Source of the DNA: a bacterium | GTDB taxonomy: Bacteria > 4484-113 > JAGGVC01 | Reading direction: 5' to 3' | Assembly (NCBI GenBank): GCA_039961635.1 | Contig: JABRWB010000008.1 | Span: 30,158-94,157, forward strand | Length of the DNA stretch: 64,000 nt | Shown here: one piece after another, positions 3,434 to 40,170 of the stretch | How positions within the stretch are numbered: position 1 is the stretch's first letter | Layout: each line of letters opens with the position of its first letter | Program-made: the position numbers and the translations under genes | Notes under the pieces: model-generated | Databases searched by the model: none | Seen by the model: the letters and a program-made list of their open reading frames with translations, nothing else | What the model was told of the DNA's origin: nothing

Positions 3434-6400
3434 CTAAGTATCCAGCACCAGCCTGACTTTCCCCAGAAGCGTCGTTACGCTGTACGGCTTGGGCAGGAAC
3501 GCGACGTTCTGCTCCAGCACGCCGGAATGCGCGATTACATTTTGGGAATAACCTGACGTATACAACACCTTGATCGACGGACGAGCCTTAGAAATTTCGC
3601 CATACAGCTGTCGTCCGTCCATCTTGGGCAGGATCGTGTCGGTAAGCAGCAAATCAATCGGCCCGCGATGCGACTTCGCGATTTCGATCGCCGCGTCGGG
3701 ATGGCCGGCCTCGAGCACGGTGTATCCGTTCTTCTTGAGTATTTCCACCGCAAGGCTGCGGACGATATCCGAATCCTCCACCACCAAAACAGTCTCCGCT
3801 CCTTTCACCGATTTGATATCGCCCAGGCATGGCGCGAAAGCTTCCATAGATTCGTACACCCGCGGGAAGTACACCTTGAACGTCGTGCCCCGCCCCGGCT
3901 CGCTGTACACCCAGATGTGCCCCCCGTGCTGCTTGACGATGCCGTACACCGTCGCAAGCCCCAGGCCGGTACCCTTTCCCAATTCCTTCGTAGTATAGAA
4001 CGGCTCGAATATGCGGTCGATCTGCTCCTTGTCCATCCCTTTCCCCGTGTCGTGGAACGACAGCATCACGTACTCGCCTGGTGTCACTTCGGCATGGGAT
4101 TTCGCGTACTCGTCGTCCAGATGCTTCACCGCAGTTTCGACGATTATCGTTCCGTTGCCCTCGATTGCATCGCGCGAATTCGCCGCGAGATTTATAAGTA
4201 TCTGGTGAATTTGGTTCACGTCCGCTTTTATCCGCGCTCCATCGGCGCCCGGAAAGACGCGAAGCTCGATGTTTTCGCCGATCAGCCTCGACAGCATTCT
4301 TGTGCATTCGTTGACTATCACGTCGATGTCCAGCACCTTCACTTCGAGAACCTGCTTGCGTGAAAACGCCAGGAGCTGCGCAACCAGCGCGGCCGCGCGC
4401 TCGCCCGCGCGTTTGATCTCCTCCAGGTCCTGATAAAGCTGGTTATCCGGTGCAAGCTCCGAAAGAGCGAGGTCGGCGTATCCCATTATCGGAGTGAGCA
4501 GGTTGTTGAAATCGTGGGCGATGCCGCCCGCAAGCAGCCCTACGGATTCCAGTTTTTGCGACTGCCGAAGCTGCTCGGAAAGCTTCGCCTTTTCATCCTC
4601 CGCCCGCTTGCGCTCCGAAACGTCGGCAAGGATTACGGCGTAGTGCCCCGGCTCCGGACGGTAAATCGTGAAGTCGAACCACTTGCCCAGCGCTTCCGAA
4701 TATTCCTCGAACCGGTCGGATTCGCCGGTTTGCGCAACCTTTCCGCATCGCTCGATCCAGCCGGGGAGCGACTTTGGAAATACTTCGGTGAACCGCCTGC
4801 CGACGACATCCTCGCGGCGCAACCCGGTGAGTGTTTCGAACGCGCGGTTGACGTCCACGAATTCGGAATCCACCGGCCGGCCGTTTTCATCGGCGATGAT
4901 TTTATGAAGCGCGAAGCCGTCCGTCATCGATTCGAACAGCTTTGCAAAACGCTCCTCTGCAATCGCCTTTTCCGCGTGGGCGCGAAGCGAGTGTATGCCG
5001 TACGTCAAATCCTTGCCCAGTTCGCTCAAGAGCGCGACCTCCTCGTCGTCGAAGGCGTCCGGCTCGGCCGCGTAGATATTGAGCGCGCCGATTACACAGC
5101 CCCCCCATTCGAGCGGAATCGCGATGGAGGATTTGTACCCGCGCGAGAGCGCGAGTTCTCTCCACGGCGAATAGTCCGGACTCTCTTCGATTCGCGCGAT
5201 CTGAGTCCGCCCGGTGCGGATTGCTGTGCCCGTCGGGCCGCGGCCGTACTCGTCGTCCGCCCACGAAATCCGCGCCTTAGAAAGATAGCCCTCCTCGACG
5301 CCGCTCCAAGCTACCGGCTGGACGGTTTTATTCGCGTCGTCGCGCTTCAGCCCCACCCAAGCGAGCCTGTAACCCCCTTCCTCCACTATTATCCTGCAAA
5401 ATTCCCGCTTGAGCGACAACGAGTCGGTTTCGTGGACCAGCTGCTGGTTGCAAAGCGAGAGGACGCGGTACGCGCGCAAAAGCCTTTCCTTCGCCTGCTC
5501 GGCCCGCTTTTTGTCGGTGATGTCGACGAAATTAAAAGCTATATGCCCGGGCATAGGAGTGAAAACCAGCAGGTGGTACCAGCGGTCGAGCGGCGGCCAG
5601 TAGTTCTCGACGTACTTCGGCTCGCCGGTTATCGCAACATCGGCGAAAACGTCGAACCAGTTCGCGGGCGCGTCGGGATATATTTCCGTAACCCGCCTTC
5701 CCACGGCCTTTTCGCGCGGCAATCCCAATATCCGCTCGAACGCGGGATTCACATCAATAATCTGCGTGTCGTAGGGCTTGCCGTTCTCGTCGTAAAGTAC
5801 TTCGTGAAGCTGAAATCCGCTTACGCTCGTTTCGAAAAGCATCCGATAGCGGAAGTCCGCTTCCTCGCGCTCTTTGCGTATGCGAAGCATGTTTATTCCG
5901 TAGGCGAGATCGCCGGCAAGTTCCTTCAGAAGCGCGATCTCTGAATCGTCGAACGCGTCCGGCTCGCCGGCACCGATTGACAACGAACCGATCAAGTTGC
6001 CGTTCGATTTGAGCGGAAGAGCAGTCAAGGCGCGCAGCCCAAACTCCTCGATGATATCGCGCCAAGGCGCGATTCGCGTGTCGTTCGGCAAATCGTGCGA
6101 AATAAACGGCTTCCCGGTTTTAATCGCAGTCGCCGATGGACCTTCGCCCTTGGGACCTTCCCCCCAGGTGAGATCCAGAGATTCGACGAATTTGGCGGGC
6201 AGTCCCGCGTGTGCGACGATGCGAATCGTTTTGTTTTCGTCGTACTCGCGCAGGCCGACCATTGCCAGCTTGTATCCTCCAAATTCGACTATTACGTCGC
6301 AGAACGCCTGTTTGAGCGCCACGGGATCGCTCTCCCGCACGAGCCGCTGGTTGCATTCCGACAACACGCGGTACGCGCGCATAAGCCTCTTTTCAGCAGC

Positions 6401-30955: not shown

Positions 30956-31780
30956 TCACCCGAACCGCACCCTGTCCAGCGGGATAACCGGGCCGTTGCG
31001 GCATGTCGTTATTCGCTTCTCCGTTCCGTCCTCGTCCACGACCGTCGCCACGCATCCGAAGCACGCGCCTATTCCGCACGCCATCCGCTCCTCCAGCGAC
31101 GCCTCGCCCGCAACCCGCCCCGCCGCCGTCCGCTGCACCGCCGCCATCATCGGGGTCGGCCCGCAGCATGCGACGTAGTCCAAATTTTCGTTTTCCAGGC
31201 AATTCGCGAGCAAGTCCACGACCGAGCCATGATGCCCGAAGCTCCCGTCATCCGTTGAGTATTTTGGAGCCATTTTTTCGCGTTCGAACAAAGGGATGCA
31301 AAGCGCCTCTTTTTTTCTGGCGCCCATGAAGAATTCCACCCGCACTTCCGGCCGCGTTTCACGCAATTTCCGGGCGAGAAAGATCAGCGGCGCGTTGCCC
31401 ACGCCGCCCGCCACGAGCGCAACCTTGCGGGCGCCTTCGGGCACCGTGAATCCTTTGCCCAGCGGAAGCAGAATCTTCAGTCCGGTGCCTTCCGGACGGG
31501 CCGCAAGCCATCTCGTCCCTGAGCCCGCCGCGTGGTAGTAAATCTCGATTTCATGCCGCTTTACGTCGTATCCGAGCACCGAAAACGGCCGGTAAAGCCT
31601 GCCCCACGGCGTGTCGTCGCACTTGAGGTTGACGAACTGGCCTGGCAGGAATCCGCCGCCGTAATCCGGGCACGCGAGCCTGATCAGATGGTGCCCCGCG
31701 GCGAATTCGAGTTGCGAAACCACCGTACAGCCCAAGTGCGAGTACTTCCTGGCCTCGATTGAGCGCTCCGCGTCATGCAT
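30956..31780 (-). CDS. PyrK-like FAD/NAD(P)-binding oxidoreductase with C-terminal [2Fe-2S] cluster (dihydroorotate dehydrogenase electron-transfer-subunit family)
   Basis: FNR-family FAD motif RLYRPFSV, NAD(P) motif ALVAGGVGNAPL, C-terminal cysteine cluster CGIGACFGC...C. Confidence 0.75.
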   Translation of the reverse strand: MHDAERSIEARKYSHLGCTVVSQLEFAAGHHLIRLACPDYGGGFLPGQFVNLKCDDTPWGRLYRPFSVLGYDVKRHEIEIYYHAAGSGTRWLAARPEGTGLKILLPLGKGFTVPEGARKVALVAGGVGNAPLIFLARKLRETRPEVRVEFFMGARKKEALCIPLFEREKMAPKYSTDDGSFGHHGSVVDLLANCLENENLDYVACCGPTPMMAAVQRTAAGRVAGEASLEERMACGIGACFGCVATVVDEDGTEKRITTCRNGPVIPLDRVRFG

Positions 31781-31935
31781 CGGCGGGATTCTAGCAGGCC
31801 GGACGGACTTTGCGACGCATCGGGCCGTTCGCCGGAAAGATGACGTGCCGGCCTAACGGAGGCTCTCCGGAAAAAAATCTTGACGGGGTTCGATAAACGG
31901 CCCAAGTTTGTGGTAGAATTGATTACTCCCAAAAT

Positions 31936-31987
31936 TCTCCCTCCTATTTTGTCCGAGGGAGGAGGGTAACCCCTCCTCCCTTTTTTT
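31936..31987 (+). terminator. Attenuator-like unit 1 of 3: two mutually exclusive hairpins. The second is followed by a T8 tract, giving an intrinsic-terminator form on the + strand.
   Basis: CTCCCTCC-tattttgtccga-GGGAGGAGGG-taac-CCCTCCTCCC-TTTTTTTT. Stem 1 pairs CTCCCTCC with GGGAGGAG; stem 2 pairs GGGAGGAGGG with CCCTCCTCCC and shares its 5' arm with stem 1. Confidence 0.6.
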
Positions 31988-32096
31988 TCGCTTGAACACT
32001 TCCGGAAGACGGCCATTCCCGTGAAAACCCGCACATCGCCCGCGGCGCGCCCAAGCCGCGTTCGCTTGTGATAAAATGTGGTCACAATTCAATTAA

Positions 32097-32144
32097 CTCC
32101 CTCCTATTTTGTCCAGGGGAGGAGGGCAAAACCCTCCTCCCTTT
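32097..32144 (+). terminator. Attenuator-like unit 2 of 3
   Basis: CTCCCTCC-tattttgtcca-GGGGAGGAGGG-caaaa-CCCTCCTCCC-TTT, 161 bp after unit 1. Confidence 0.55.
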
Positions 32145-32251
32145 GTTCCGTACGCTTGTGAATGGTTAGCAATCCGTTCCAAATCCCCCGCAATGACCAC
32201 GGCCAAGCATGTAACCGCATGTGGTGGTAAAATAAAACCAGAATGTAATTT

Positions 32252-32302
32252 CTCCCTCCTATTTTGTCCGAGGGAGGAGGGGAAAAACCCTCCTCCCTTT
32301 TT
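32252..32302 (+). terminator. Attenuator-like unit 3 of 3, about 30-60 nt upstream of the start of CDS 32332-33747
   Basis: CTCCCTCC-tattttgtccga-GGGAGGAGGG-gaaaaa-CCCTCCTCCC-TTTTT, 155 bp after unit 2. Confidence 0.6.
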
Positions 32303-32331
32303 GTCGCGGGGGCGCGGGATGGTGCAATCCG

Positions 32332-33747
32332 GTGAAACGTGATTCACCGCCGATACGGAGCTGTGTGGTGAATGAAATTTGGGCGCCTTTAATTGCTCTG
32401 ACATCGGCTCTCCGCTTTGCTAACATTCCAGCCGTGTCCATTCCCGACCACACGCTTCGCTTCAACCGCCGCTCGCCCGAGTTCGCGCTCGACTGGGCGT
32501 GGCTTGCGCTTGCCGATTCCCGCCCGCCGGAGAATCCCGACATTTCTTTCCGCCGGCTCGCCGATGCGAAGGAAACGGCCCGCGGCCTGTTCGTGAGCCG
32601 CCAGATGAAGCTCGCGGATTTGCAAATCCTTCGCGGCCGGGTAGAAAAAGCCGCCCGCGCAAAGACCGATGCCGAAGTGGAATACGAGTTGTTCCTGGAG
32701 AGCCTTGACGCTTCCGCCGCCGCGGCGAAGCGAACCGTCAATCCGCTCAAAAAGCTTTCGGAAGACAAAAAGCGCGAAGAGCTGCTCAAGAAAAAAGCCG
32801 GACCGGTCAAGGCCGCCCGCGAAGTGCACGCCGCGCTGGAAAAACAGCTCGCGGCACTTGAAGCGGAGATCGCGAAGCTCGAAGCCGGCAGGGAAGCCGC
32901 GCTCGCGAATTCAGCCGCACTGGAAGAGCGATGGATTGCCGCGGCGTCCGCCGAGGCGCTGTCGATGCTCGCATCGGAGGGGCCGGATTCGGCCGCGGCG
33001 GCGCTCGAAGCGCGGCTGGGACGGGATCCGCGGCGGATCGAATTCAATTTCCTGCTGTGGATGTGCGCGCAAATCGCATCCGGGCTGTCAGCCGATCCCG
33101 AAAAGCTATTGCATAAATCCCGCGCCGCGATCGCGGAGATACGCGCTTCGGACGCGCACGCGCTCGCAGCCGCGATGGAAGCCTGCGATTCGCCTTCCGC
33201 ACCGGAGTCGCCGCCCGCCACGCCGTCCGACATCGGCGCGCGCGCATACCCGCTTTATTCGCTGTGCCGCGTGATGGCCGGCGCGCCCGCGCCGGCGGAG
33301 CTCGAACCGCCCCGGCTCGCCGCGCTGGCCGAAATTGTCAATCTCGCCGTCGCGGCCGAAAAACGCAGTGCGAAAACCGGGCAATTCGGCGACATTGCCG
33401 GAAAATCCCGCGACGCGGCTGCGCGGATTCTCGAATCCGGAAGCGATTTTCCCGACTCCGCGCTTGCATTGGCGGGCCACGTGCATATCCTTTGCGGCGC
33501 GGCCTCGGATTGGATCGATTTCCTCACGTCCAAGTCCGTTGCGCTTACGCCCGCGCACCGTTTTTCGCTTGGAATACTCGCGCTCGCGCACAAATCCGCC
33601 GGGCGCGAAGTCCCGTCCGCGCTTTTGGATATGTTCCGCAGGGGAAGGCCGGATTCCTTCCTTTGGTATACTCTTTCCGCGGTGGAGGGTGTGCCGCGCC
33701 TGGAGCATCCATTCGAATTCTCCGGCGGACTATTCCTGATCCCTTGA
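32332..33747 (+). CDS. Hypothetical coiled-coil protein (about 460-471 aa), first gene of a three-gene operon with the AAA ATPase
   Basis: GTG start (32332 or 32365/32368). Central Ala/Glu/Lys-rich coiled coil (KLADLQILRGRVEKAARAKTDAEVEYELFLESLDASAAAAKRT...LEAEIAKLEAGREAALANSAALEERW). The C-terminal 200 aa are Ala-rich helical. No known motif recognised. Confidence 0.6.
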   Translation: MKRDSPPIRSCVVNEIWAPLIALTSALRFANIPAVSIPDHTLRFNRRSPEFALDWAWLALADSRPPENPDISFRRLADAKETARGLFVSRQMKLADLQILRGRVEKAARAKTDAEVEYELFLESLDASAAAAKRTVNPLKKLSEDKKREELLKKKAGPVKAAREVHAALEKQLAALEAEIAKLEAGREAALANSAALEERWIAAASAEALSMLASEGPDSAAAALEARLGRDPRRIEFNFLLWMCAQIASGLSADPEKLLHKSRAAIAEIRASDAHALAAAMEACDSPSAPESPPATPSDIGARAYPLYSLCRVMAGAPAPAELEPPRLAALAEIVNLAVAAEKRSAKTGQFGDIAGKSRDAAARILESGSDFPDSALALAGHVHILCGAASDWIDFLTSKSVALTPAHRFSLGILALAHKSAGREVPSALLDMFRRGRPDSFLWYTLSAVEGVPRLEHPFEFSGGLFLIP

Positions 33748-33766
33748 AACGCCGCGGGGCGCCCAG

Positions 33767-35329
33767 GTGGAAAAAGACTTCAGCATCGTGGACGAAATCG
33801 AGCTTCTCATCCGCGCGCGCTACCCCATCCTTTACGTCCAGAGCTTCGAGGAAGACCGCGTGATTCCCGCGCTTCGCCGCATCTGCGAAAAGCGCGGCAA
33901 GGAATATTTCGAGTGGGCGTGCACGGAAGGATTCACCAGCTTCAAGGCCGGCGAAAAGAAAATAGACTCCGCCACCCGCGACCCCGTCCAGGCGCTGGAG
34001 CATGTCGCGCAGTCGAAACTTAACGCGGTTTATTTGCTCAAGGACTTCCACCCGTTCCTGAACGACTTCACCGTGACGCGCAAGGTGCGGGACGTCGCGA
34101 TGGCGCTGAAAAGCAGCTACAAAACGATCGTCATCCTCTCGCCGGTGCTGCGCATCCCGACGGAGCTCGAAAAGGAAATAACCGTCGTGGATTTTCCGCT
34201 CCCGGATTCGAAAGAGCTTCTCGAAATCCTCGACAACATCGTCAAGCTTGTCGCGAAAGACCCGAAGGTCAAGGTAAACCTGACGCAGGCCGACCGCGAG
34301 AACATCGTCCAGGCCGCGCTGGGGCTGACCGCGAGCGAGGCCAAGCAGGCGTTCGCCAAGGCGATTGTCCACGACGCGTCCATTTCGTCCGCCGATATAA
34401 GCATGATCCTTTCGGAAAAGGAGCAGATCGTGCGCAAGGCGGGATACCTGGAATACTTCCGCTCGCAGGACGAGTTCGCGCACATCGGCGGGCTGGATTT
34501 GCTAAAAAGCTGGATGGCAAAGCGCGGCCGCGCGTTCGGCGAGGACGCGAAAAAATTCGGGCTGCCCGCGCCCAAAGGCGTGCTTTTGGTCGGCGTCCAG
34601 GGCTGCGGCAAGTCGCTGACCGCGAAGGCCGTCTCCGGATTGTGGCAGCTCCCGCTGCTGCGGCTCGACGTGGGCAAGCTTTTTTCCGGGGTAGTCGGCT
34701 CGTCCGAGGACAACGCGCGGCGCGCGATAAAGTCCGCCGAAGCAGTCTCGCCGTGCATCCTTTGGATTGACGAAATCGAAAAAGGGCTGTCTGGAGTGCA
34801 GTCAAGCTCGTTCTCGGACGCGGGCACGACCAGCCGCGTCTTCGGCACGATAATCACCTGGATGCAGGAGAAGGAAAAGCCCGTATTCATAATCGCGACG
34901 GCGAACGACATAACGCAGCTTCCGCCGGAGATGATGCGCAAGGGGCGCTTCGACGAGATATTTTTCGTGGATCTGCCGGAGCAAGGCGAGCGTGTCGAGA
35001 TTTTCGAAATCCACATCAAAAAGAAAAAGCGCGATCCGGAGAAGTACGACCTCGAAAAACTCGCGGAACTCGCCGTCGGATTTTCCGGCGCGGAAATCGA
35101 GCAGGCCGTTATCAGCGCGCTCTTCGACGCGTTCGACTCCGGCAAAGAGCTGACGCAGGCCAACCTGGAGCGCGCGATTACCGAAACCGTCCCGCTTTCG
35201 CGCACGATGAAGGAGCACATCGAGGCGCTGCGCGGCTGGGCGAAGACCCGCGCGCGGTTCGCGTCAAGCCGCGAAAACGTAGAGGAAATCCAGCCGCTGC
35301 CCGCCGGATTCAGCGCGCTCGAAATCTGA
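33767..35329 (+). CDS. Classical-clade AAA+ ATPase with an about 230-aa N-terminal domain (Ycf46-like family)
   Basis: Walker A LLVGVQGCGKSLTAKAV. Walker B ILWIDEIEKG. Sensor-1/arginine finger region IIATANDITQLPPEMMRKGRFDEIFFVDLP (classical AAA second-region-of-homology pattern). N-terminal ELLIRARYPILYVQSFEEDRV resembles the conserved N-terminus of cyanobacterial Ycf46-type ATPases (recalled from memory, not searched). GTG start 20 nt after the upstream stop. Confidence 0.8.
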   Translation: MEKDFSIVDEIELLIRARYPILYVQSFEEDRVIPALRRICEKRGKEYFEWACTEGFTSFKAGEKKIDSATRDPVQALEHVAQSKLNAVYLLKDFHPFLNDFTVTRKVRDVAMALKSSYKTIVILSPVLRIPTELEKEITVVDFPLPDSKELLEILDNIVKLVAKDPKVKVNLTQADRENIVQAALGLTASEAKQAFAKAIVHDASISSADISMILSEKEQIVRKAGYLEYFRSQDEFAHIGGLDLLKSWMAKRGRAFGEDAKKFGLPAPKGVLLVGVQGCGKSLTAKAVSGLWQLPLLRLDVGKLFSGVVGSSEDNARRAIKSAEAVSPCILWIDEIEKGLSGVQSSSFSDAGTTSRVFGTIITWMQEKEKPVFIIATANDITQLPPEMMRKGRFDEIFFVDLPEQGERVEIFEIHIKKKKRDPEKYDLEKLAELAVGFSGAEIEQAVISALFDAFDSGKELTQANLERAITETVPLSRTMKEHIEALRGWAKTRARFASSRENVEEIQPLPAGFSALEI

Positions 35330-36366
35330 TGGCTGGCATCCGCCCACTTGATTACCTTGCGGATTACTACCGCACGCGGCCGAACATATACGAGCTGCCG
35401 ATAGAGTCCTCGGGGCTTGCGGACGACGACCTGCATATAAAAACTTTCGGCAGGCTTGCCTCGCTCGCGATGCTGCGCCACGAGAAAACCGTCCTGCGCG
35501 GGATGAGACTGCTTGTCGAGGGAAGCTGGGAGGAATGCGCCGAAGAAATGAAACGCGCGCTGGCGACGATGCCGGGGCTGACCGACGCGCGGCTTTTGGC
35601 CGCGATCGCGTATTACATGCAGGGCAAGCCCGCGCTCGTCGCGAAAACGCTGGCGATTGAAATCGAGGGCGCGAATCCGGATCCCGCGGTGGGGCGGTAT
35701 TTCCGCGCGTGGCTCCCCTCGCTGCGAATACTCGTCCGGCTGGACGACGATCTGGTCGCGCCGTTTTATCCGAACCGGCTGGGGCTTTTCGCGCTCGCGA
35801 TCGCCGCGCAGCGCGAGCTGGGAAACTTCCGCGACGCGGGAATCGCAGTCGAGCAGGCGGCGGACGAGTTCGGTCTCACCGACGAGCTTTTATACTCCGC
35901 GCTGCTGCTGCACCTTCGCACGGGCGGGTACACCGAGGCGTGGCGGCTCGTCCAGACGCGGGAGTACAAGAACCGGGATTCGCTGGACGTCGGGCTTCTG
36001 ATGCTGCGCGCCGAGGCGATGATCGGCCCGCTGGGGATAAACCGCGCGCTCTCCGAATACCGCAGCGCGCTGCAATTCAGGGACAAGCGCTGCAAATGGC
36101 TGATGAACCGGGCGCGCTGGCGCATCGCGGAGCTGTACCAAATCGGGGGGTACTTCCCGGACGAGCGCGAAGCGCTTTGCGCGATAGAGCCGGAGTATTT
36201 TCCGGCGCACCTGAACGAAAGGCGGCTGGCCCGCATTGCCGAACTCCCCGCGCCCAAGGAAGAGCCGGAGGGACTTAAAACCGACGAGCGGTATTTCAAG
36301 CGGTTCGACTACGTCTGGCGAGGCAAGGTGCCGCCCGACGAGCCGGTGGATTTTCTGGAAGTGTGA
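35329..36366 (+). CDS. Hypothetical helical-repeat (TPR-like) protein, third gene of the AAA operon
   Basis: ATG overlaps the AAA gene stop (TGATG). 345 aa, all-alpha, with repeated A-x-x-Y-Y/A-x-x-L helical hairpins. Confidence 0.6.
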   Translation: MAGIRPLDYLADYYRTRPNIYELPIESSGLADDDLHIKTFGRLASLAMLRHEKTVLRGMRLLVEGSWEECAEEMKRALATMPGLTDARLLAAIAYYMQGKPALVAKTLAIEIEGANPDPAVGRYFRAWLPSLRILVRLDDDLVAPFYPNRLGLFALAIAAQRELGNFRDAGIAVEQAADEFGLTDELLYSALLLHLRTGGYTEAWRLVQTREYKNRDSLDVGLLMLRAEAMIGPLGINRALSEYRSALQFRDKRCKWLMNRARWRIAELYQIGGYFPDEREALCAIEPEYFPAHLNERRLARIAELPAPKEEPEGLKTDERYFKRFDYVWRGKVPPDEPVDFLEV

Positions 36367-37272
36367 GGGGCGCAATTTCATATCCCTCCGGTTTCCGGAA
36401 TGGCGCGCAGCGGAATTTTCGCAGGCGCGGCTGGCAGCCGCCCGTTTTCCCGCCGCGGAAATGCGCGGATTTTTCTGGGAGTACGCCGCGTGAGCGGCGT
36501 CCCGCATCGCCTGCGTGAGCGGGCGTGAAAGGACTATCTTTATTTTAGCCGCTTAAGCGGCACAAACCCGACGGCACTTACGTGCCGTACTCCCGGACGC
36601 TACGCGGATATTAGGTATTGATACCGGATACGGCTTGGCCTTCAGGAGTGCGAGAGCCGCGCTCTCGCTCGTTAACGGGAAGCCATGCTTCCCGGAAAAT
36701 AGGAATTCAAATTGCATTGCGCAAACATGAAATTAAAGGAAAAACAATTTCCCCGAAGCATGGCTTCGGGATATCGAGCGGCAGCATGGCCGCCGCAATC
36801 CGGACGCGACGCGGCATTATGAACCGCCGCGACGCGGGGCGCGGCATCCAGCGCGACATGCAGCCCATTCCGGCTCCGCTGTACCTACGCGGAACCTGCG
36901 CGTTATGGCGCGACGCGTGGGAAACGGAAGGCCGGGCGGCGGGCGAGCCGCCGCTCGCCCCTACGGGAAATTTGAGGCGGCTATGGTTTAATGCGGAACG
37001 TCGGAAAAGGCCCGGAAAATTCCCGCATCCCCTGAGTAAAACTGCGTTTGACAGTCCAAAGGGGGGGCGGCCTGCCCTTCCATTTTGGAACGTTGCCTGA
37101 ATGGTGGGATTAACATATTCTTCCTTCTACGAATAATGGCGGAATGTCAACATGGGAAGGCCATGGAAAGATCTGTTTTTGCATGCGAAGATTGTCTGAT
37201 ATTAATCCGTCCAGATCGCTTTTAGCAGTTCGGCTTTGGGGCGATGGTATGAAGAAATTGCCCAAAATATCA

Positions 37273-40170
37273 TCAGAGTTCGTCAGGATCAAGCCTTTGA
37301 ACCAGAAAATCCCGTGAACCTCCACCGACATCAAGTACACCCTCCCTCCAAGTTTGAATCCCATCGGAATCAACAAATATTCCGGATATATTCCCGGAAG
37401 TAACATTTAAATTAATAACTTCTCCCGACGGATGGCTGATGTATGGATTTCGTGCTTCAAATTTCAAACTAGCGCTATTGCAGTTACCCGCCAGCACCAG
37501 TTCGTCATGGCCAGCCTTTGCAATTACCATTCCATCCATATAGTCTTTAATATCACTCAATCCAAATGCCCATATTATGTTTTCATCTATGTCCATTTTG
37601 GCTAAAGATGCGCGCCAAAACGAAATGTATACCCCGTCAGAAGTCGGAACAATACCGCGAGTCCAATATGGTAGTTCCTGGAAGCACGCTGCTTTTTTTA
37701 GCTCACCTGAATCGCTAAATTTCAAAAGTATTGGCTTTTGAACCCCGTTGCTGTAGTACTCTGTTCCGCCGCCTAGGTAGATATCGCCTGTGTCGGATAT
37801 GGCCAGGTCGTTTCCATATTCCTTTGACGGAGTCTCCCATCTACGCGCCCAAATAAAGTTGCCATCCATATCAATTTTCATTATCTCCAAATCGCCTTGG
37901 CCTGCTTCGGCATCCCAATTGTATCCTCCTGCATACAAATATCCGTTTTGCTGGTCAATTTCGCTCGGATAAGCAACCGCGCCAGGATAGGCGCGCGCCC
38001 AGATTAGCTGGCCCGATGAATCAAGATTTAATATTATACAAATTTTATCGGCCGCATCGCTTATAAAACCCAACACGTAAACAAATCCATCTTCATTAAC
38101 GACAACACTTCTGGCGACCGATTCAACACCAGCCAAAAATAACTTGGACCACAGAATGTAGCCATATTCGTTATAGCGTTGAATTAACAAGTCATTATGA
38201 GGCTCTGGCTCAAAGCTGGTTGCTGTCCATCCAGCAACGTATACGCCGCCCTCATTGTCGGCGGCAATGCCTCCTGCACAATCGTTAAAAGTAGTATGGT
38301 AGGTAGTAGCCCAATAAAAGTTGCCATATTGATCAAAAGTAGCAAGCAATATGTCTCTAAAAGGATCATCCTCAACACTTATATCGCCAACTATGCATTC
38401 CGAGTCATTTGATGTGGATGTGACCTCTAGCGCGTACTCAGACAAAACGGAGCCCCAAGAATGGTACCAGTCCACATGCGATACCGCAAATGAAAAGGGA
38501 AAGCTGGCCATGCCAAAGGGACTAGTGAGTTCGAGCATTCCAACGTAATCTCCCGGCTCTCCAAGCATGACAACTGGTGTTGCTTCGGAAGATTGCGACG
38601 GCACAGCATAATCTCCAAATGTCCAATTGTATGCTAGTGGTTCTGACCCAACGACATCTGCAGAAAACTGAACTTGGGTTGCACGATATCCGCTTAAAGG
38701 CGAAACCGATAGTATTTGTGGAGGCGCGCCCGGGCCATAAACTGTAAAAGTAAAATGAAATTCATCCTCCCCCGAAGAATTCGTCGCCTTAAAAATACCA
38801 TCGTATTCGCCAGCGGTCGCAAATACAATTTGTGGCCAAAAATCGGATGAATGGTTCGGTACAGCTCCGCCTCCAAAATCCCAAGAATAGTACATTGGTT
38901 CTGTGCCATTTACCGATGCTGAAAATGTGGCCCGGTCGCCTTCAATGCCGAACAGTGGGGAAACAGACTTAATGTTGGGCACATATGGATTGGCAACAAC
39001 ATCAAGATTGAAATGCCTGGAATCGCTACCTGCTGGATTTGACACGGTAAGTAGGCAATCATATTCACCTTCTGAGCCAATTTGCTCGGTTGGTTGCTGC
39101 AGATTACTGGCAGATGGAGTGGCTGCATCTCCAAAACTCCAGCTGTAAATAAATGGCTGAGTTCCGGAAATTGCTGCCCGAAATACAACTGAATTTCCGG
39201 CAAGTGCACTCTGGGGTGCAATACTCATAATATTTGGCCTTATTAAGTTTGCCGGAATTTGGATTATATTGCTACTATCTCCCTCCGAATTATCACTGGC
39301 CACCGGAACGACGCATACAAAACCTTGTTGTCCCATCGGTAGGTTTAGAGTGATTTTATGTTGAGCTAGTACTTGCTGGCTTACGGGAGTTGGCGCGCCG
39401 ATTTGGATATATTCGCCTTGCTCAAGCGAAGAAGTCAAGACTACATAGCCCCATACTTCGTTTAGGAACCTTAATGCGATTGGTGTTATGTCGCTTATTC
39501 CAACCACGCCGTCACCATCGCCGTCTATCCATGCCTCCAGCGCGTCGTCGCCGATGCCGTCGTTTGTGAGCGCGCCGAAGTGGAGCGCGATCGGCGTGAT
39601 GTCGCTTACGCCCACCTCGCCGGAGACGTCGAAGTCGCCAAGGTTCACGTAGCTCCAGCTAAGCGTGTTCGTCCCCGGATCGTACGCGAGATCGGTCACC
39701 CGGCCGGCGTCGCCCTGGGGGGCTCTTGATACGATGCGGTTCCCGCTTGCGGAATTGCGCGAGCCGCCGCCCGCGATTCCCGATTCGCGCGTGCCGCCCG
39801 CGATTCCCGATTCGCGCGCGCCGCCCGCGATTCCCGATTCGCGCGCGCCGCCGCCCGGCGCTGCAGCTCCATTGCCATGTATTTCTTCGAGCCGGCGGAT
39901 GAGTTCGCTACGAAGCGTTTCGAATACCGCGGGATCGGCGCCGTCCGGAGTTTCGTAGCCGCGGATTTCGTCGAGCGCGGATTCGAGCGCGACGGATTTC
40001 GGTTCGGCGATTGCGATTCCCGTTTCGGGCGAGTCCCGCCAATCGCGGGAACGATGTCCGCCCGCGTCGCCTGCGGAGTTTCTATGCTTGCCCGCGGAGC
40101 AGGATGGGACAAGGAGCGATGCGGCCAAAAGCGCCGCGGCGATTGCGAATGCGGCAAGCGACTTTGTCAT
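37273..40170 (-). CDS. Secreted cell-surface protein: signal peptide, 3x ARESGIAGG repeat, dockerin-like Ca-binding repeat pair, 3 PKD domains, C-terminal SBBP-type beta-propeller
   Basis: 965 aa. Signal peptide MTKSLAAFAIAAALLAASLLVPSCSAG. Dockerin-like segments GDFDVSGEVGVSDITPIALHFGA and IDGDGDGVVGISDITPIALRF. Three PKD-like blocks (..YSWSFGDAATPSAS.., ..YYSWDFGGGAVP.., ..YNWTFGDYAVPS..). At least 6 SBBP-like repeats (DNEGGVYVAGWT, NEDGFVYVLGFI, QQNGYLYAGGYN, DTGDIYLGGGT ...). The DNA from about 37100 to 39450 is markedly AT-rich relative to the window. Confidence 0.75.
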   Translation of the reverse strand: MTKSLAAFAIAAALLAASLLVPSCSAGKHRNSAGDAGGHRSRDWRDSPETGIAIAEPKSVALESALDEIRGYETPDGADPAVFETLRSELIRRLEEIHGNGAAAPGGGARESGIAGGARESGIAGGTRESGIAGGGSRNSASGNRIVSRAPQGDAGRVTDLAYDPGTNTLSWSYVNLGDFDVSGEVGVSDITPIALHFGALTNDGIGDDALEAWIDGDGDGVVGISDITPIALRFLNEVWGYVVLTSSLEQGEYIQIGAPTPVSQQVLAQHKITLNLPMGQQGFVCVVPVASDNSEGDSSNIIQIPANLIRPNIMSIAPQSALAGNSVVFRAAISGTQPFIYSWSFGDAATPSASNLQQPTEQIGSEGEYDCLLTVSNPAGSDSRHFNLDVVANPYVPNIKSVSPLFGIEGDRATFSASVNGTEPMYYSWDFGGGAVPNHSSDFWPQIVFATAGEYDGIFKATNSSGEDEFHFTFTVYGPGAPPQILSVSPLSGYRATQVQFSADVVGSEPLAYNWTFGDYAVPSQSSEATPVVMLGEPGDYVGMLELTSPFGMASFPFSFAVSHVDWYHSWGSVLSEYALEVTSTSNDSECIVGDISVEDDPFRDILLATFDQYGNFYWATTYHTTFNDCAGGIAADNEGGVYVAGWTATSFEPEPHNDLLIQRYNEYGYILWSKLFLAGVESVARSVVVNEDGFVYVLGFISDAADKICIILNLDSSGQLIWARAYPGAVAYPSEIDQQNGYLYAGGYNWDAEAGQGDLEIMKIDMDGNFIWARRWETPSKEYGNDLAISDTGDIYLGGGTEYYSNGVQKPILLKFSDSGELKKAACFQELPYWTRGIVPTSDGVYISFWRASLAKMDIDENIIWAFGLSDIKDYMDGMVIAKAGHDELVLAGNCNSASLKFEARNPYISHPSGEVINLNVTSGNISGIFVDSDGIQTWREGVLDVGGGSRDFLVQRLDPDEL
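39765..39845. repeat. Three tandem 27-bp repeats inside CDS 37273-40170 (encode ARESGIAGG x3)
   Basis: gccgcccgcgattcccgattcgcgcg(t/c) repeated three times, head to tail. Confidence 0.8.

Follow-up and report, generated by a model that had tools for sequence, protein, structure and literature searches.

This study concerns a three-gene operon at positions 32332–36366 of a 64 000-nucleotide stretch of bacterial DNA (contig JABRWB010000008.1, positions 30 158–94 157 of the forward strand; hereafter the window), in which a Ycf46-type ATPase of the classical AAA clade, g2, lies between a coiled-coil protein, g1, and a helical-repeat protein, g3, and which is preceded by three copies of a short RNA unit. 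It is a form, particular to one lineage, of a module that is known but has not been characterised. In the model that we prefer, to which we give about even chances, g2 would be an ATP-driven ring remodeller or unfoldase, g3 would be its TPR adaptor, g1 would be an accessory protein and the RNA unit would control or accompany the expression of the operon.

All three genes are on the forward strand. Gene g1 (32332–33747) is a 471-residue open reading frame (ORF) with a GTG start, g2 (33767–35329) is a 520-residue ORF with a GTG start and g3 (35329–36366) is a 345-residue ORF with an ATG start. The original prediction, made from the letters alone, had described three same-strand genes, and their positions and order are borne out by the ORF list of the window. 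It had also described the stop codon of g2 and the start codon of g3 as sharing one base in a TGATG overlap (ctcgaaatcTGATGgct), which is the case, whereas the spacer between g1 and g2 is 19 nucleotides and not the 20 that it gave. The genes are real, as homologues were found for g1, g2 and g3 alike; large antisense ORFs overlap g1 and g2, and these were treated as by-products of high G+C content because the genes opposite them have real homologues.

The features of a classical AAA ATPase are all present in g2. Pfam places an AAA domain (PF00004) at residues 272–402 with an E-value of 2.5e-28, and AAA_lid_3 narrowly passes its cut-off of 27.2 bits with 27.6. The module comprises Walker A, GVQGCGKSL (residues 276–284), pore loop 1, G-V-V-G (around residues 308–311), Walker B, WIDEIE (residues 333–338), sensor 1 (N380), the RKGRFDE motif (residues 391–397), in which R391 and R394 are at the positions of the two arginine fingers, and the lid motif GFSGAEIE from around residue 438, and the chain ends in the tail ...SALEI. 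In a 25-sequence multi-phylum alignment G276–S283, D335/E336, N380, R391 and R394 are invariant, and with Walker A, Walker B, sensor 1 and the arginine fingers thus preserved g2 looks catalytically competent. The AAA motifs and the N-terminal string ELLIRARYPILYVQSFEEDRV that had been picked out originally are present, and all of them fall in invariant columns of this alignment. Pore loop 1 has the form G-(V/I/Y/W)-(V/I)-G across the family and is aliphatic rather than aromatic in most members. The best relatives of known structure are p97/Cdc48 D2, VAT and AFG2, with E-values down to 3e-51 over residues 259–487, and the NCBIfam models for CDC48, FtsH and PAN match g2 in the AAA part only.

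The N-terminal domain of g2 (residues 1 to about 235) is conserved as strongly as the AAA module, with R16, R18, Y19, Y23, E28, E29 and R31 invariant across phyla. It contains no P-loop, and a profile of the domain gave no credible match to any PDB sequence. On comparison with the C-terminal, AAA half of the protein, hhalign reported a weak colinear similarity (E-value 0.015, probability 3%) that aligns a sensor-1-like strand, "IPxELEK..ITVVDFPLP" with "LPPEL..RFDEIFFVDLP" and a lid-like "GLTAxEAE" with "GFSGAEIE", and we offer the suggestion that the domain may be a degenerate AAA-like module.

The size and order of these parts identify g2, by architecture and annotation, as a Ycf46-type ATPase: an N-terminal domain of about 230 residues that carries LIRARYPIIY..S.EE.R precedes a single AAA module in a protein of about 500 residues. 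The original prediction had associated g2 with the Ycf46 family, and this association agrees both with the JGI COG label of the family, SpoVK/Ycf46/Vps4, and with an N-terminal domain plus AAA architecture that is common to thousands of proteins. At least 8000 proteins are related to g2 at E ≤ 1e-30, and the best homologues among the matches listed, with the own cluster of g2 left out, cover 93–100% of the query at 55–77% identity. In 79 loci outside the clade of the window the identity to g2 is 47–58%; these loci belong to Armatimonadota, Omnitrophota, Planctomycetota, Verrucomicrobiota, Myxococcota, Chloroflexota, Sericytochromatia and others. For the full-length family in the seven groups named, values of 55–63% were also obtained, and the homologues from Sericytochromatia and Gastranaerophilales are 48–55% identical to g2. 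The family also occurs on mobile elements. The phage family phrog_8638 matches g2 over its full length (E-value 2.6e-152), and 659 plasmid records cover at least 80% of g2, including the IncC backbone and cyanobacterial, Bacillus and Treponema plasmids; the plasmid-borne AAA genes of Geminocystis and Pseudanabaena are 44–45% identical to g2 over the full length.

Elsewhere the ATPase family has characteristic neighbours. When the genes beside it were clustered over 80 loci, DUF1257 was found in 28 and DUF2997 in 15, the identities of both families being confirmed by Pfam, and a radical-SAM-like neighbour was found in 13 PVC-clade loci and in one Armatimonadota locus that has DUF1257 and a TPR-containing kinase. 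The annotated plasmids (IncC, Bacillus, Treponema and cyanobacterial) show the same partners of the ATPase, DUF1257 and DUF2997, often together with a radical-SAM/4Fe–4S protein. Loci with DUF1257 (Ycf35-like), DUF2997 or a radical-SAM or 4Fe–4S protein beside the ATPase are L014–L080 (28 loci), L097 and L103–L106 in our numbering. No characterisation of this cross-phylum AAA plus DUF1257/DUF2997 module was found in the literature. No match at E ≤ 10 was obtained with profiles of 27 DUF1257 and 15 DUF2997 neighbours, whether among the six-frame ORFs of the window or in the clade loci L001–L006 and L100–L102, and the radical-SAM-like neighbour is likewise absent from the window and the clade loci. 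The description of g2 as a stand-alone ATPase therefore does not suit the family, which usually adjoins DUF1257 and DUF2997 elsewhere and does not do so in the window; the clade that lacks both at this locus may work differently or may encode both elsewhere.

The third protein, g3, had been described as carrying no nameable motif, and it can now be assigned to the TPR-type solenoids on the basis of structure prediction and of its Planctomycetota homologue. Its family is tiny: seven relatives at 46–52% identity were found, and the family is confined to the clade and one Planctomycetota genome (locus L015). The g3 sequence itself stays below the Pfam threshold (TPR_19, 16.7 bits against a cut-off of 25), whereas the L015 homologue passes it for TPR_19 (39.7 bits) and also for TPR_14. 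The AlphaFold2 model of g3, built with the seven relatives, is a helical-repeat solenoid with a pLDDT of 67.5 and a pTM of 0.66, and the top Foldseek matches to this model in the PDB are a consensus TPR, the TPR of OGT and the TPRs of EccA5 and EccA3, with E-values of 3e-5 to 1e-3. By hhalign there is no specific kinship between g3 and the TPR neighbour family of the PVC clade.

Three conserved features of g3 lie outside the repeats themselves: an N-terminal peptide, PLDYxxDYY...IYEL; a β-hairpin insert around residues 133–146 that is followed by PFYPNRLG; and a C-terminal tail, RFDYxxRG...FLE(V/L/M), with an invariant F-L-E. The ATPases of the clade end in ...LE(I/L/V), like g3, and ...(I/F)E(F/L) is the ending of many of the more remote sequences in the family. 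Binding of extended or C-terminal peptides is a classical property of TPR domains, Hop and CHIP with the EEVD tail being examples. Since TPR domains bind peptides in this way and the tails of g3 and the ATPase are conserved, docking of a tail would, by analogy, be our preferred model for how the two proteins meet.

The trio recurs in five lineages of one uncultivated clade, namely the window, L001/L002/L006/L100, L003/L004/L090, L005 and L107, which answers positively the question of whether the three genes are conserved together, on which the original prediction had staked its reading. Within the clade pairwise identities are 22–31% for g1, 72–79% for g2 and 47–58% for g3. One further locus, L101, keeps the RNA unit, the ATPase and g3 without g1, which marks the ATPase and g3 as the constant core. 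The two dedicated partners that had been proposed thus fare differently: g3 is kept with the ATPase, whereas g1 is missing in L101 and was not found outside the clade. The neighbour upstream of the trio varies by lineage (PyrK-like, methyltransferase or FTCD_C), and these changes argue against simple inherited synteny. Outside the clade, iterative profile searches with g1 and g3 through 80 ATPase loci of other phyla brought a single addition, the g3 homologue of L015, which lies 12 nucleotides downstream of the ATPase in a Planctomycetota metagenome-assembled genome (MAG). In that locus six tandem paralogues of about 140–180 residues stand directly upstream of the ATPase (L015 3103–6728) and share the motifs GTLRSIGSSQLAY, MIENYSMTWEA and CVTEDQVVRVY.

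The distance between g1 and g2 is 4–34 nucleotides in all lineages with the trio. That between g2 and g3 ranges from –1 to about 140 nucleotides across the clade, the relatives having 19–140 nucleotides or a gene on the opposite strand in between. The intervening gene is a DUF3800 gene on the reverse strand between the ATPase and TPR genes (L003 8924–9922 and L102 958–1857), and with gaps of up to about 140 nucleotides and this insertion in L003 and L102 the co-transcription of g2 and g3 is not universal.

The first protein, g1, is a lineage-restricted, fast-evolving orphan and, judged from the gene sets compared, a dispensable one. A full HMMER scan of 1.84 billion representatives returned five proteins, and four distinct relatives were recognized with E-values of 1e-22 to 1e-41; a word-index homology search returned only g1 itself, no annotated relative exists, and no Pfam, NCBIfam or PHROG family matched it. 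Its sole PADLOC match, PtuB (E-value 0.062), is not credible. The AlphaFold2 single-sequence model has an overall pLDDT of 54 and reaches 80–94 only in a helical hairpin, a long antiparallel one at about residues 71–216, with a poorly modelled helical C-terminal half. In a Foldseek search with this model nothing was found at E < 0.4, and the generic coiled-coil hairpins that were returned (such as p85 iSH2 and HlyD) were not interpreted. Short motifs are nevertheless retained among the relatives, EVDYE, PVKxAR, LWYTL and GG(L/M/V)FxIP, the last two near the C-terminus. The start of g1 is uncertain: the JGI annotation places it 12 codons downstream, giving 459 residues, whereas alignment with the relatives favours the GTG at 32332, with an insertion of about 30 residues after it that is peculiar to the window. 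An extended –10-like box lies 6 nucleotides before the g1 GTG in L001 (about 4238–4255) and L003 (about 5947–5964), in the order TGnTAnAAT, 6 nucleotides, GTG, which is the geometry of a leaderless mRNA; the window does not fit this arrangement, having a degraded TGCAAT only 3 nucleotides before the GTG (32320–32334).

Upstream of g1 an 18-nucleotide sequence is repeated three times, with starts at 31937, 32097 and 32252 (spacings of 160 and 155 nucleotides), against 0.02 copies expected by chance, and each copy is part of a larger RNA unit on the forward strand. Unit 1 (31911–31990) consists of an extended –10-like box, TGGTAGAAT (31911–31919), the C-rich segment CTCCCTCCTATTTTGTCC (31937–31954), a 12-base-pair GC hairpin (31955–31982) and eight T residues; it was matched by both the promoter and the terminator scans and folds with –25.7 kcal/mol (z-score –4.2). 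Unit 2 (32069–32150) has TGATAAAAT at 32069–32077, the C-rich segment at 32097–32114 and a hairpin with a degraded T-run (TTTGTT), and unit 3 (32225–32305) has TGGTAAAAT at 32225–32233, the C-rich segment at 32252–32269 and a hairpin with an interrupted T-run (TTTTTGT). A single copy precedes the first operon gene in L001 (about 4078–4165), L003 (about 5742–5832), L005 (about 1836–1920) and L101 (about 935–1035), and in L101 this first gene is the ATPase. The segment CTCCCTCCTATT, whose form in the window copies is that given above, is invariant across the clade, as is the unpaired, anti-Shine–Dalgarno-like segment CUCCCUCCUAUU. The stem differs in sequence by lineage yet pairs, as GGGGGGGGCGGC/GCCCCCCCCC in L001 and as AGGGAGGAAGC/GCTTCCTCCCT in L005 and L101. 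In the predicted folds of all seven versions a hairpin of 10–12 base pairs with its U-run dominates (–21 to –27 kcal/mol); the 5′ segment is wholly unpaired in four of them, while the three window copies have a weak 5′ helix that leaves the C-rich core in an unpaired loop, and in none of the seven is the core paired with an arm of the hairpin.

About 1 Mb of ATPase loci from outside the clade contains no copy of the element, and Rfam 15 gave no match at gathering score in the whole window. A metagenome scan for the motif yielded mostly chance matches, which were reverse complements of ribosome-binding sites, and only re-found the L003 species; nothing useful emerged when the window was scanned by duplex energy for targets of the C-rich seed. 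The upstream repeats had been described as a triple attenuator. With a –10-like box of its own in each copy, a fold dominated by the hairpin and a single copy in the relatives, the arrangement speaks for a gene for a small RNA or for a terminated leader. Its anatomy suits a short, terminated transcript that is kept beside the operon by selection, and the unit is a candidate clade-specific RNA motif that is not in Rfam.

Taken together, these results can be accommodated in the preferred model as follows. With all catalytic motifs intact g2 most likely forms a ring, which would pull on or remodel client proteins at the expense of ATP through its hydrophobic pore loop, and its N-terminal domain may be a degenerate AAA-like module that acts as a docking platform. 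The most likely role for g3 is that of an adaptor or scaffold that would bind extended peptides of the clients or of the ATPase, whereas g1, being clade-specific and open to loss, might be a client, a scaffold or a second adaptor. The RNA unit would belong functionally with the operon, being either a small RNA encoded beside it or a leader whose terminator restricts read-through. By analogy with the ycf46 operon of cyanobacteria, the whole is probably a stress-responsive remodelling or quality-control device. Several observations weigh against this model. The window lacks DUF1257 and DUF2997, the commonest neighbours of the family; a pore loop 1 that is aliphatic in most members gives no assurance of processive threading; and the hhalign similarity is weak, so that the degenerate AAA-like nature of the N-terminal domain stays a suggestion. 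The close overlap of g2 and g3 in the window is not kept in the relatives, adjacency within one clade may partly reflect shared descent, with the Planctomycetota genome as the sole independent case, and the stress analogy is indirect, since the function of Ycf46 itself is unsolved.

A bolder version, which we consider a long shot, is that the clade has rewired a near-universal Ycf46-type unfoldase, replacing DUF1257/DUF2997 by a TPR protein that docks through a tail (...LE(V/I/L)) and by a fast-evolving coiled-coil client or scaffold, and placing it under the control of a small RNA, not described before, whose invariant CUCCCUCCUAUU segment mimics the anti-Shine–Dalgarno end of 16S rRNA. If this were true, the RNA would either gate read-through into the operon or work in trans at ribosome-binding sites, and the ATPase would thereby be coupled to translational status.

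Three other explanations have to be set against the preferred model. It is unlikely, in our judgement, that g1 and g3 are not partners of g2 at all, the ATPase acting alone or with unlinked DUF1257 and DUF2997 proteins and the adjacency being synteny inherited in a young clade. Such an explanation would make sense of the loss of g1 in L101 and its restriction to the clade, of the variable spacing between g2 and g3, with a gene between them in two lineages, and of the 28 and 15 of 80 family loci that have DUF1257 and DUF2997, rather than relatives of g1 or g3, as neighbours. However, the adjacency outlasts changes in the upstream flanks, the gaps between g1 and g2 are always short, the stop codon of g2 overlaps the start codon of g3 in the window, and a g3 homologue independently follows the ATPase in the Planctomycetota MAG. 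An anti-phage or anti-plasmid defence system, or one resembling a toxin–antitoxin pair, with the ATPase as sensor or motor and g1 and g3 as effector or specificity subunits, seems to us improbable, although the AAA domain matches the PADLOC IetA models (E-value 4e-24) and the NCBIfam IteA model (72 bits) and the family is found in a phage family and on plasmids that include the IncC backbone. These matches cover the generic AAA module only, that to IteA being far below its cut-off of 510 bits, and profile scans of g1 and g3 revealed neither an IetS-type protease nor a nuclease, TIR, protease or other effector domain. The very fast evolution of g1, the toxin–antitoxin and defence genes near the trio in relatives (HepT with a nucleotidyltransferase, and DarT with Macro) and the DUF3800 gene between g2 and g3 would also suit a defence function, but the ATPase is highly conserved within the clade and conserved across phyla, holds a fixed position among housekeeping genes and is thus unlike a patchy island, and the G+C content of the trio equals that of its flanks. 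The defence role that had been thought conceivable at the outset finds no specific support.

The third explanation concerns the RNA unit and leaves the proteins aside: the upstream repeats could be true attenuators in which read-through of a single leader transcript is set by pairing of the C-rich segment with the G-rich left arm of the hairpin. We hold this to be possible, though doubtful. In all lineages the segment CUCCCUCC could pair with the left arm of the hairpin, given G–U pairs in L001; the unit always directly precedes the operon, even in L101, whose first gene is the ATPase; the weakened U-runs of units 2 and 3 would permit read-through; and the –10-like box before g1 in the window is poor (TGCAAT, 3 nucleotides from the start codon). 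Against attenuation, the terminator hairpin dominates all predicted ensembles, whereas the antiterminator pairing, possible on paper, is predicted in none; each unit of the window has its own –10-like box, which describes three promoters and not one leader; L001, L003 and L101 have good extended –10 boxes in the interval from the terminator to the first gene; and no sensing element was identified, neither a leader peptide nor a known riboswitch being found, with no Rfam match at gathering score.

The genes around the trio are core chromosomal genes. A PyrK-like Fe–S protein, a LigB-family protein, an S49 peptidase and MreB are encoded upstream on the opposite strand, and the G+C content of the trio is about 0.61. 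A candidate operon terminator on the forward strand, CCGCGGAAATGCGCGG followed by ATTTTTCTGG (36453–36478), lies 87 nucleotides past the stop codon of g3; it is a consensus scan match only, and terminator-like matches in the region are not enriched over shuffled sequence. Further downstream a 965-residue PKD-repeat protein is encoded on the reverse strand (37273–40170). Over 36001–40170 the G+C content of the window falls to 0.51–0.54, compared with about 0.61 elsewhere, and this segment, which covers a gene-poor stretch of 900 nucleotides past g3 together with the gene for the PKD-repeat protein, may have been acquired, or may hold a surface-protein gene of distinct composition. In the relatives, genes of the toxin–antitoxin or defence type flank the trio, namely a nucleotidyltransferase with HepT, DarT with Macro and DUF488 with DuOB (L001 1550–2180 and 10624–11697; L002 6680–8365). 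This cargo is not the same in two strain variants of one metagenome, suggesting that the acyl-CoA dehydrogenase gene is followed directly by a variable island.

Plastid and chromosomal cyanobacterial ycf46 genes are known from the literature. The present survey finds Ycf46-type ATPases, conserved at 50–60% identity, in seven or more bacterial phyla, with Sericytochromatia and Gastranaerophilales, the sister groups of cyanobacteria, among their hosts, while the biochemical role of the family is still unsolved. Nothing in the operon is surprising in kind, and the rarity of its uncultivated lineage limits direct testing. An ATPase that is paired with a recognisable, peptide-binding type of TPR adaptor is nevertheless a possible route to the clients of this unsolved family, and the cross-phylum AAA/DUF1257/DUF2997/radical-SAM neighbourhood is another.

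Focusing on the RNA unit, the nearest known systems are RsaE/RoxS and the anti-Shine–Dalgarno csRNAs of Firmicutes, which resemble it in having an unpaired C-rich segment that contains CCUCC, an intrinsic terminator and paralogous copies. The window element is not a member of RsaE, which was the best sub-threshold Rfam match over 31780–32450 with 20.6 bits against a gathering score of 79; unlike these RNAs it is clade-specific and always lies beside the ATPase operon.

For the proteins, some likenesses stop at the AAA module. The AAA module of g2 scores on the IetA and IteA profiles, which recalls IetAS and SGI1 SgiAT, but membership of IetAS/IteAS was rejected: beyond the low IteA score, the IetA match spans residues 262–493 only, leaving the N-terminal domain outside, and there is no protease in g1 or g3. 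A Vps4/CdvC system with ESCRT-III or PspA was rejected as well. No MIT, Snf7 or PspA_IM30 Pfam match was obtained for g2 or g1 at E ≤ 0.1, the CdvC model covers the AAA part of g2 only (69 bits against a cut-off of 650), and nothing but generic coiled coils, with E ≥ 0.5, matches the hairpin of g1.

EccA of type VII secretion likewise unites a TPR solenoid and an AAA ATPase, the TPRs of EccA5 and EccA3 are among the top matches to the g3 model, and the Planctomycetota g3 homologue gives a weak Pfam match to T7SS_EccA1_N (E-value 0.0012). In the operon, however, the TPR protein and the ATPase are separate polypeptides, and the TPR matches are generic, with a consensus TPR first. Membership of EccA was rejected on the separate genes, on the best sequence matches of the AAA part, which are CDC48, FtsH and PAN (the AAA module of EccA itself was not compared), and on the lack of an ESX/T7SS gene among the ten neighbours scanned. 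Cdc48/p97/VAT, which include the best solved relatives of the AAA module, share with g2 the classical-clade motifs and the two arginine fingers and, as a concept, a ring ATPase that is given specificity by separate adaptors. Compared with Cdc48/p97, g2 has one active AAA module and not two, its N-terminal domain is unrelated by sequence to the N domain of p97, and g1 and g3 are not adaptors of the UBX, SHP or Ufd1 type.

The neighbourhood of AAA, DUF1257 and DUF2997 contains the same ATPase family as g2, at 50–63% identity, whereas in the clade g1, g3 and the RNA unit stand in its place. In cyanobacteria ycf46 is the middle gene of a stress-induced three-gene operon, slr0373–slr0374–slr0376 (PMC7496141), and Synpcc7942_0416–0418 is another stress-induced operon of three genes with ycf46 in the middle (bioRxiv 10.1101/2025.07.21.665879). 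Ycf46 (slr0374, Synpcc7942_0417 and plastid ycf46) and g2 are both proteins of about 500 residues with an N-terminal domain of about 230 residues and one classical AAA module, and in both operons the ATPase is in the middle of three genes. The window operon differs in its flanks, a 471-residue coiled-coil orphan found in the clade only and a 345-residue TPR protein found in the clade and one Planctomycetota MAG, and no photosynthesis gene appeared among the window genes scanned. In concept, and by analogy, the module thus resembles Cdc48/p97 with its cofactors or a split EccA while being a member of neither, and, as judged by architecture and annotation, the closest named relative of g2 is Ycf46.

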